40,294 bases of DNA from Escherichia phage vB_EcoP-U8, in the sequence record MT862763.1, one strand, 5' to 3'. Below are positions 35,073-36,831 of this stretch, in pieces; position 1 is the stretch's first letter; each line of letters opens with the position of its first letter. The position numbers and the translations under genes are program-made. The notes beneath the pieces are model-generated. The model saw only the letters and a list, made by a program, of their open reading frames with translations. It was not told where the DNA came from and did not search any database.

Positions 35073-35073
<1 letters not shown>
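34909..35073 (-). CDS. hypothetical small basic protein (gene 4.3/4.5 position)
   Basis: 54 aa [17 protein letters not shown]...; ATG preceded by GAGGAGGAGGAGGAGG. Confidence 0.45.

Positions 35074-36831
<1,758 letters not shown>

Follow-up and report, generated by a model that had tools for sequence, protein, structure and literature searches.

A GAG repeat at the gene 4.2-4.3 junction of a Kayfunavirus supplies glutamate codons and Shine-Dalgarno registers at the end of a probable overlapping gene

The DNA stretch analyzed here, hereafter called the window, comprises 40,294 nucleotides of Escherichia phage vB_EcoP-U8 (MT862763.1) and belongs to a Kayfunavirus, a K1F-like member of the T7 family (Studiervirinae). 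The genes of interest lie on the minus strand. Gene 4 (35128..36828) codes for the primase/helicase (PHROG 239, E=1e-231), and its last 270 nucleotides are overlapped by gene 4.2 (35073..35399, 108 amino acids), which is read in the +1 frame relative to gene 4 and matches PHROG 5140 and the Pfam family DUF5480. Gene 4.3 (34909..35073, 54 amino acids, PHROG 13039) comes next and is the gene served by the Shine-Dalgarno (SD) sequence described below. The next large gene codes for DNA polymerase (gene 5, 32674..34881). The region around the junction matches 237 phage records, mostly from Kayfunavirus, and one K1F record labels two small ORFs here as gp4.2 and gp4.3. The gp4.3 ORF evolves as a coding gene, with a diversity of 0.083, 0.077 and 0.265 at the three codon positions and a conserved start position. 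The kayfunavirus protein is not homologous to T7 gp4.3 (E=1.2).

Positions 35096..35071 of the minus strand read CAC(GAG)5GAA (35076..35096) followed directly by TAATG. The perfect (GAG)5 triplet repeat (35079..35093) forms Glu codons 102-106 of gp4.2 and contains four overlapping GGAGG registers located 4, 7, 10 and 13 nucleotides upstream of the gp4.3 AUG. The GAA codon that follows (35076..35078) is the final Glu codon of gp4.2 and completes the 3'-most GGAGGA. The TAATG element (35071..35075) is composed of the gp4.2 stop codon (TAA, 35075..35073) and the gp4.3 start codon (ATG, 35073..35071), which have one base in common. An initial annotation had proposed that five tandem GAG codons end an overlapping ORF and form GGAGG motifs just before the next ATG, whose start overlaps the stop, and the sequence agrees on each of these points. 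Its Glu run does contain five GAG codons, but the GAA triplet adds another, which brings the total to six Glu residues, and the translation closes with CYHEEEEEE*.

In the output of Tandem Repeats Finder, the tract (35077..35093; period 3, 5.7 copies, 100% matches) is the only period-3 array in the 40-kb window, and (GGA)5 occurs once versus 0.00 times expected from 100 dinucleotide-preserving shuffles. Thus, the repeat is real and non-random. Two other readings of the tract were considered and rejected. A plus-strand ORF (34891..35097) would decode the repeat as poly-Ser, but the genes and promoters are all on the minus strand. A 71-amino-acid version of gp4.3 extended to a GTG start would decode it as poly-Gly, but spacer types are unrelated in sequence ahead of the conserved gp4.3 start.

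The consensus for the phage RNA polymerase promoter, CTAAACTATCACTATAGGGA, is present in eleven copies, all on the minus strand, near positions 39965, 39091, 36983, 30875, 28036, 27048, 22266, 14171, 7974, 4881 and 1560. A scan with this consensus found no phage promoter between 36983 and 30875, an interval that includes the spacer between genes 4 and 4.3, and therefore gp4.3 would be translated from the polycistronic gene 4 mRNA. No Rfam family was identified at the junction, and searches there for sigma-70 promoter and terminator signals yielded nothing beyond chance. Overlaps of 1 or 4 nucleotides are also found at nine or more other junctions in the window.

Between the gp4.3 stop codon and the gene 5 start codon lies a strong stem-loop (34868..34909, minus strand) with a centroid energy of -22.4 kcal/mol (z=-3.6), a stability equaled by none of 200 shuffled sequences. 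The homologous site in phage ASO2B is annotated as a rho-independent terminator, and phage T3 carries the RNase III site R4.7 ahead of gene 5. The hairpin might be processed by RNase III or might stabilize the mRNA.

The interval between genes 4 and 5 is a hotspot of gene gain and replacement among relatives. Phages EPr2 (L031, 1405..1806) and ST17 (L027, 1439..1840) carry an extra gene of about 400 nucleotides between genes 4.3 and 5; its annotation is a putative HNH nuclease in the former and hypothetical in the latter. In SH3 (L026, 1255..1785) and SFP20 (L033, 1193..1723), gp4.3 is replaced by a gene coding for 176 amino acids. A homologue of the K1F 'gp4.4' ORF (34869..35018, minus strand) overlaps gp4.3. 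It has no start codon in 11 of 30 genomes and is interrupted early by stops in several, such that the 'gp4.4' annotation is probably spurious.

For the segment 30000..40294, the best match over 10 kb is E. coli phage vB_EcoP-22664BS1 at 96.6% identity, and the phage collection contains no genome nearly identical to the window. For the 4.2/4.3 junction region (34850..35450), by contrast, the best matches are Klebsiella phage Pkp-1 and Salmonella phage ST20 (95-96%). This mismatch of best relatives implies that the window is a mosaic, with probable recombination around the spacer cassette.

Several characteristics identify the overlapping ORF as the kayfunavirus version of T7 gene 4.2. The predicted protein scores 49.1 bits against DUF5480 (PF17576), above the curated cut-off of 25, and matches PHROG 5140 over residues 1-107 (E=1.4e-48). 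Its body is 57% identical to T7 gp4.2 over 70 amino acids. As in other members of the T7 group, the 3' end of gene 4 in the window contains a +1 ORF that starts at a conserved internal ATG and ends beyond the gene 4 stop codon. This ATG is located at -269 relative to that stop codon, compared with -275 and -278 in T7 and T3, and the frame remains open to +55. A putative SD sequence, GAGAAAGGT (35407..35415, minus strand), lies 7 nucleotides upstream of the ATG (35399..35397) within gene 4 codons for E-K-G. All 27 kayfunavirus sequences share the SD and the ATG without change, whereas the wobble bases between them vary, and AAAGGT and the gp4.2 ATG are also found in T7. Kayfuna-, Teseptima-, Teetre-, Berlin- and Przondovirus all carry the ORF, but the Aarhus-, Ghuna- and Chatterjeevirus representatives examined lack it. 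Searching 5.8 billion proteins with gp4.2 yielded only seven matching clusters, too few to survey the tails. Gene callers, it appears, almost never call this ORF.

Since the ORF is embedded in a conserved gene, similarity between gp4.2 sequences is uninformative on its own. Counted from the gene 4 stop codon, 27 kayfunavirus sequences keep the +1 frame open from -293 onward (from farther upstream in two of them), and the first ATG in this frame is at -269 in all 27. An open +1 frame with an ATG is also found in four additional phages and 14 metagenome contigs, for a total of 45 sequences. A stop-avoidance test considered those gene 4 codons whose synonymous alternative would create a stop codon in the +1 frame and compared the overlap with the 600 nucleotides upstream, using an expectation derived from codon usage. 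Stop-creating synonymous codons occupy none of the 283 at-risk cells in the overlap versus 61.6 expected, whereas upstream the count is neutral (281 of 948 versus 309.8 expected). All 10 at-risk columns in the overlap are free of stops, compared with 8 of 34 upstream (Fisher p=1.8e-5). At-risk columns vary among harmless synonyms only (ATC or ATT and never ATA; CTC or CTT and never CTG or CTA before A). The decaying 'gp4.4' ORF of K1F served as a negative control. Only this cross-genome test of openness is significant, unlike a test of ORF length in the single sequence, which is not significant over the whole gene: an open +1 run of 98 codons arises in 26% of synonymous shuffles (p=0.26).

Synonymous diversity of gene 4 is not reduced in the overlap (0.27 versus 0.25, p=0.5). 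Thus, the first approximately 70 residues of gp4.2 are kept free of stops, but their sequence is not constrained, an unusual situation in a functional protein. Diversity by codon position tracks gene 4 alone until the last 60 nucleotides, and mean pairwise identity over the same nucleotides is 71% for gp4.2 versus 93% for gp4. Conservation of the entire gp4.2 sequence was also considered and was dropped on the negative result of the synonymous-rate test.

The part of the protein that is encoded inside gene 4 is predicted to form a hydrophobic, helical body, and another 18 full codons past the gene 4 stop codon make up the tail. An AlphaFold (AF2) model places helices at residues 3-25 and 30-84, followed by a disordered tail. 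The body (35188..35399, minus strand) carries the most hydrophobic 45-amino-acid stretch in the +1 frame of gene 4 (Kyte-Doolittle value of 0.99, versus -1.1 to 0.46 elsewhere). The body may be a small membrane hairpin constrained in composition only.

The tail is overlapped by no other gene. Within spacer types, its substitutions fall on gp4.2 codon positions 1, 2 and 3 in the ratio 6/5/24 (p=2e-5). Of 30 codon changes, 21 are synonymous, and this variety includes all four Gly codons in type A tails, all three Ile codons in type C, and both CGA/AGA and AGG/CGG alternatives in type F. In addition, the T7 gp4.2 tail (DYEKFRWRVPF*) and that of kayfunavirus type D (DYEKYKWRVPF*) are separated only by nucleotide differences that are synonymous or conservative. 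This substitution pattern indicates that the tail is under purifying selection.

The window's tail carries a Cys3-His motif (35094..35123, minus strand) encoded wholly outside gene 4, and among type A relatives its Gly and Cys codons undergo synonymous changes only. Three Cys plus His within 12-17 residues are found in four unrelated tail cassettes (type A, K1F L001, L016 and T3 L036), including CPCGHSDCDGIMYH. The T7 and type D cassettes end in WRVPF instead. The Cys3-His tail may be a zinc knuckle.

Stop avoidance, the codon pattern of the tail, the T7 homologue and the HMM matches together support the suggestion in the initial annotation of a translated overlapping ORF at this site. Based on these comparative signatures, we consider gp4.2 to be a genuine overlapping gene of the T7 group that is kept open by selection and is most probably translated.

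The spacer between genes 4 and 4.3 is a mosaic of at least eight unrelated sequence types. In all eight, the gp4.2 frame is open to the next start, which has a joint chance of about 0.003 with shuffled spacers. In every kayfunavirus examined, the gp4.2 stop codon falls between 1 nucleotide before the next start codon and 20 nucleotides into the next gene. The endings take the form of TAATG, TAGTG or TGATG, an ATGA overlap, a stop 1 nucleotide before the start, or a stop 14-20 nucleotides inside the next gene. Types A, B, C, D, L022 and SH3 have a stop-start overlap (TAATG, TAGTG, TGATG or ATGA). The frame also ends at the next start in SH3, L022 and SFP20, in which another gene lies downstream.

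Moreover, the last gp4.2 codons of every type include a strong SD sequence, which is variously spelled GAG GAG, GGA GGA, GAG GAC, TGG AGG, AGG AGA or AAG GAG GAG and is located 4-10 nucleotides before the conserved start codon of the next gene in all related spacer types. The proposed dual use of the repeat, as tail codons and as the SD of the next gene, is therefore well founded, and it reflects a general design of the junction rather than a peculiarity of the repeat. The arrangement in the window, in which the stop codon overlaps the start and the SD lies at a functional spacing inside the upstream coding sequence, has the characteristics of coupled gene pairs and suggests that gp4.2 and gp4.3 are translationally coupled.

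Ten type A junctions were compared, four of which carry a pure repeat. With identical flanks, these four have 5 (window), 3 (ST20), 3 (SAKp10309) and 2 (Pkp-1) GAG copies. Seven of the ten have four codons between the His/Tyr pair and the stop codon. Among them, ST20 and SAKp10309 carry GAG GAG GAG GAA, and the other five have impure tails (GAA GAG GAG AAA, GAG GAG GAT AAA, GAA GAG GAG GAC or GAA GAG GAG AAC). Pkp-1 has three codons, (GAG)2GAA, and the window has six, (GAG)5GAA. Changes in length are thus confined to pure repeats and occur in both directions, in a small sample of four pure-repeat genomes. This pattern fits replication slippage, although a trinucleotide repeat of merely five units is expected to slip rarely. 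Exact-pattern scans of viral_contigs and metagenome_contigs for a junction of the window's type with any copy number produced no match, and a scan with a degenerate pattern recovered one contig that was already in the sample.

Copy number appears to have little effect on the strength of the SD sequence. Modeled pairing with the 3' end of 16S rRNA is -11.8 kcal/mol at two copies and -12.3 to -12.6 kcal/mol at three to eight copies. Two copies provide a GGAGG register at 4 nucleotides only, whereas five copies provide registers at 4, 7, 10 and 13 nucleotides. The nearest register is the same from two to eight copies, and predicted accessibility of the start region hardly moves (0.52-0.61). The initial annotation had viewed the tract as a 'super' SD, which is not supported: the duplex with the anti-SD is about -12 kcal/mol from two copies upward, and extra copies add registers (at 7, 10 and 13 nucleotides), not strength. 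Its forecast that the repeat number would vary among related isolates proved correct, and the length of the upstream tail differs between isolates accordingly. A regulatory or contingency role is not supported because the unit is 3 nucleotides long and provides no on/off switching. With this unit, a change in copy number never disturbs the gp4.2 frame or the TAATG overlap, and neither gene can be switched off.

The model we favor, with a probability of roughly 0.7, is that the repeat arose by slippage expansion of SD-encoding Glu codons that close a genuine overlapping gene 4.2. The tract would serve as the SD for gp4.3 at a coupled junction, and its length polymorphism would be tolerated and probably near-neutral. 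Read in the +1 frame, gene 4.2 would start at an internal SD and ATG in the helicase-coding portion of gene 4, pass the gene 4 stop codon, cross the 54-nucleotide spacer and end in TAATG. Two GAG codons that close the gene in this lineage would also spell the gp4.3 SD, GAGGAGGA. Ribosomes might reach gp4.3 either by de novo binding at the GGAGG registers or by restarting after they terminate gp4.2. Because GGAGGA is itself (GGA)2, it could seed replication slippage. A gain or loss of copies would alter only the number of C-terminal Glu residues (3-6) and of SD registers (1-4). Such changes keep the gp4.2 frame and the stop-start overlap, and the polymorphism is therefore likely to be tolerated and close to neutral.

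Two alternatives dispute the status of gp4.2 itself. The repeat might simply be an intergenic SD for gp4.3 that lies within an untranslated, alternative-frame ORF, left open by chance and by the constraints on gene 4. The unreduced synonymous diversity of gene 4, the frequency with which synonymous shuffles of the single sequence yield a 98-codon open run, and the rarity with which gene callers report the ORF are all compatible with this explanation. We nevertheless regard it as improbable, given that stop avoidance is specific to the overlap, that third-position and synonymous substitutions prevail in the tail outside gene 4, and that T7 and kayfunaviruses share a conserved tail peptide. The open frame in all eight spacer types and the conserved SD and ATG also oppose it, and 'gp4.4' decays in contrast. 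Alternatively, programmed +1 frameshifting from gene 4 might yield a second form of the primase/helicase whose C-terminus consists of the Cys motif and poly-Glu, with no independent gp4.2. The C-terminal tail of T7 gp4 is functionally important, and a frameshift product would account for purifying selection on the tail and not on the body of the ORF. However, in every genome the open frame starts 8 codons before the conserved ATG and SD and approximately 97 codons before the gene 4 stop codon. A frame that opens just ahead of a conserved SD and ATG fits independent initiation and is needless for a late frameshift, which makes this explanation very improbable.

Other alternatives accept the gene but interpret the repeat differently. 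The tract might be an adaptive rheostat or contingency locus, in which (GGA)n slippage is selected because it adjusts the acidic gp4.2 tail or, through additional SD registers or standby sites, the translation of gp4.3, and so generates heritable expression variants. We consider this unlikely: duplex energy saturates at two copies, accessibility is nearly flat, there are merely five units of 3 nucleotides, a single non-repetitive GGAGGA suffices in most kayfunaviruses, and the four-codon length is departed from in just 2 of 10 type A sequences. These observations outweigh the differences in copy number among close relatives with identical flanks and the rise from one to four registers between two and five copies. 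The T7 genes of this region are linked to counter-defense and host takeover, which would suit a rheostat, although kayfunavirus gp4.3 has no homology to the T7 proteins concerned. A similarly doubtful proposal is that gp4.2 is a 'carrier' gene. Its hydrophobic body of approximately 70 residues would drift with the wobble positions of gene 4, merely remaining free of stops, while selection would act on swappable tail cassettes and on the delivery of terminating ribosomes to the following gene, and (GAG)n would heritably tune how efficiently the genes are coupled or how charged the tail is. Finally, the five copies in the window might be an assembly or sequencing artefact, the true number being three as in relatives. 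Nothing favors this directly beyond the fact that some platforms can miscount short repeats. A perfect repeat of 17 nucleotides is far below any read length, indel errors of exactly 6 nucleotides are unusual, and independent genomes with two and three copies indicate that the variation is real, so we attach almost no credence to it.

The preferred model, slippage expansion of SD-encoding codons at the end of gene 4.2, can be compared with known systems. Gene 4.2 in T7 and T3 is likewise a +1 ORF in the last approximately 270 nucleotides of gene 4, begins at the same ATG derived from His-Glu codons (CAT GAA) after AAAGGT, encodes a hydrophobic body, and runs past the gene 4 stop codon. However, in T7 and T3 the phi4.3 promoter begins with the three bases of the gp4.2 stop codon (TAA), and 25 or 46 nucleotides farther on gene 4.3 starts with its own SD, whereas the window has no promoter here and the stop overlaps the next start. 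The window's tail (Cys3-His, then poly-Glu) is also a different cassette from the DYEKFRWRVPF of T7. Coupled gene pairs with ATGA or TAATG junctions in phages and bacterial operons share the one-base overlap and a strong SD in the last codons of the upstream ORF. They differ in that the upstream partner here is an out-of-frame gene nested in gene 4, the SD codons are expanded into a microsatellite, and coupling is proposed from sequence.

Bacterial simple sequence repeat (SSR) contingency loci resemble the tract in having a perfect short tandem repeat at a translation signal and length differences between close genomes (5, 3, 3 and 2 copies here) that affect pure repeats only. Changes in length at phase-variable loci switch or strongly modulate expression, whereas here the frames, the TAATG overlap, the 4-nucleotide register and the duplex energy are all kept. 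The window also differs in its 3-nucleotide unit, which causes no frameshift, in its range of two to five units, in the unchanged predicted SD pairing, and in belonging to a lytic phage. Overall, the feature is an instance of well-known principles, namely an SD located in an upstream ORF, a stop-start overlap and in-frame SSR polymorphism.

Previous reports address gp4.2 in other contexts. It is annotated in T7, T3, K1F and Citrobacter phages SH3 to SH5 (PMC4925675). Over-expression of T7 Gp4.2 inhibits E. coli growth, and this effect is relieved by stringent-like RNA polymerase alleles (PMC13483052). T7 genes 4.2 and 4.3 fall in low-essentiality groups in a knockout screen (PMC11482910), and the C-terminus of T7 gene 4.2 has been removed by a laboratory deletion (PMC8923235). 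In the literature searched, we found no report of the repeat, of stop avoidance in gp4.2 or of selection on its tail, and no usable work on triplet SSRs.

The microsatellite itself matters little, since it is probably a small, in-frame, near-neutral polymorphism of an SD sequence that doubles as Glu codons. The more useful by-product is comparative evidence that gp4.2, still listed as 'hypothetical' in T7-group annotations, is a selected overlapping gene with interchangeable tails that in kayfunaviruses always ends at the start of the next gene. A small number of mutations silent in gene 4 would make the expression of gp4.2 and gp4.3 testable. These findings also suggest that annotation pipelines should call gp4.2 in kayfunaviruses.
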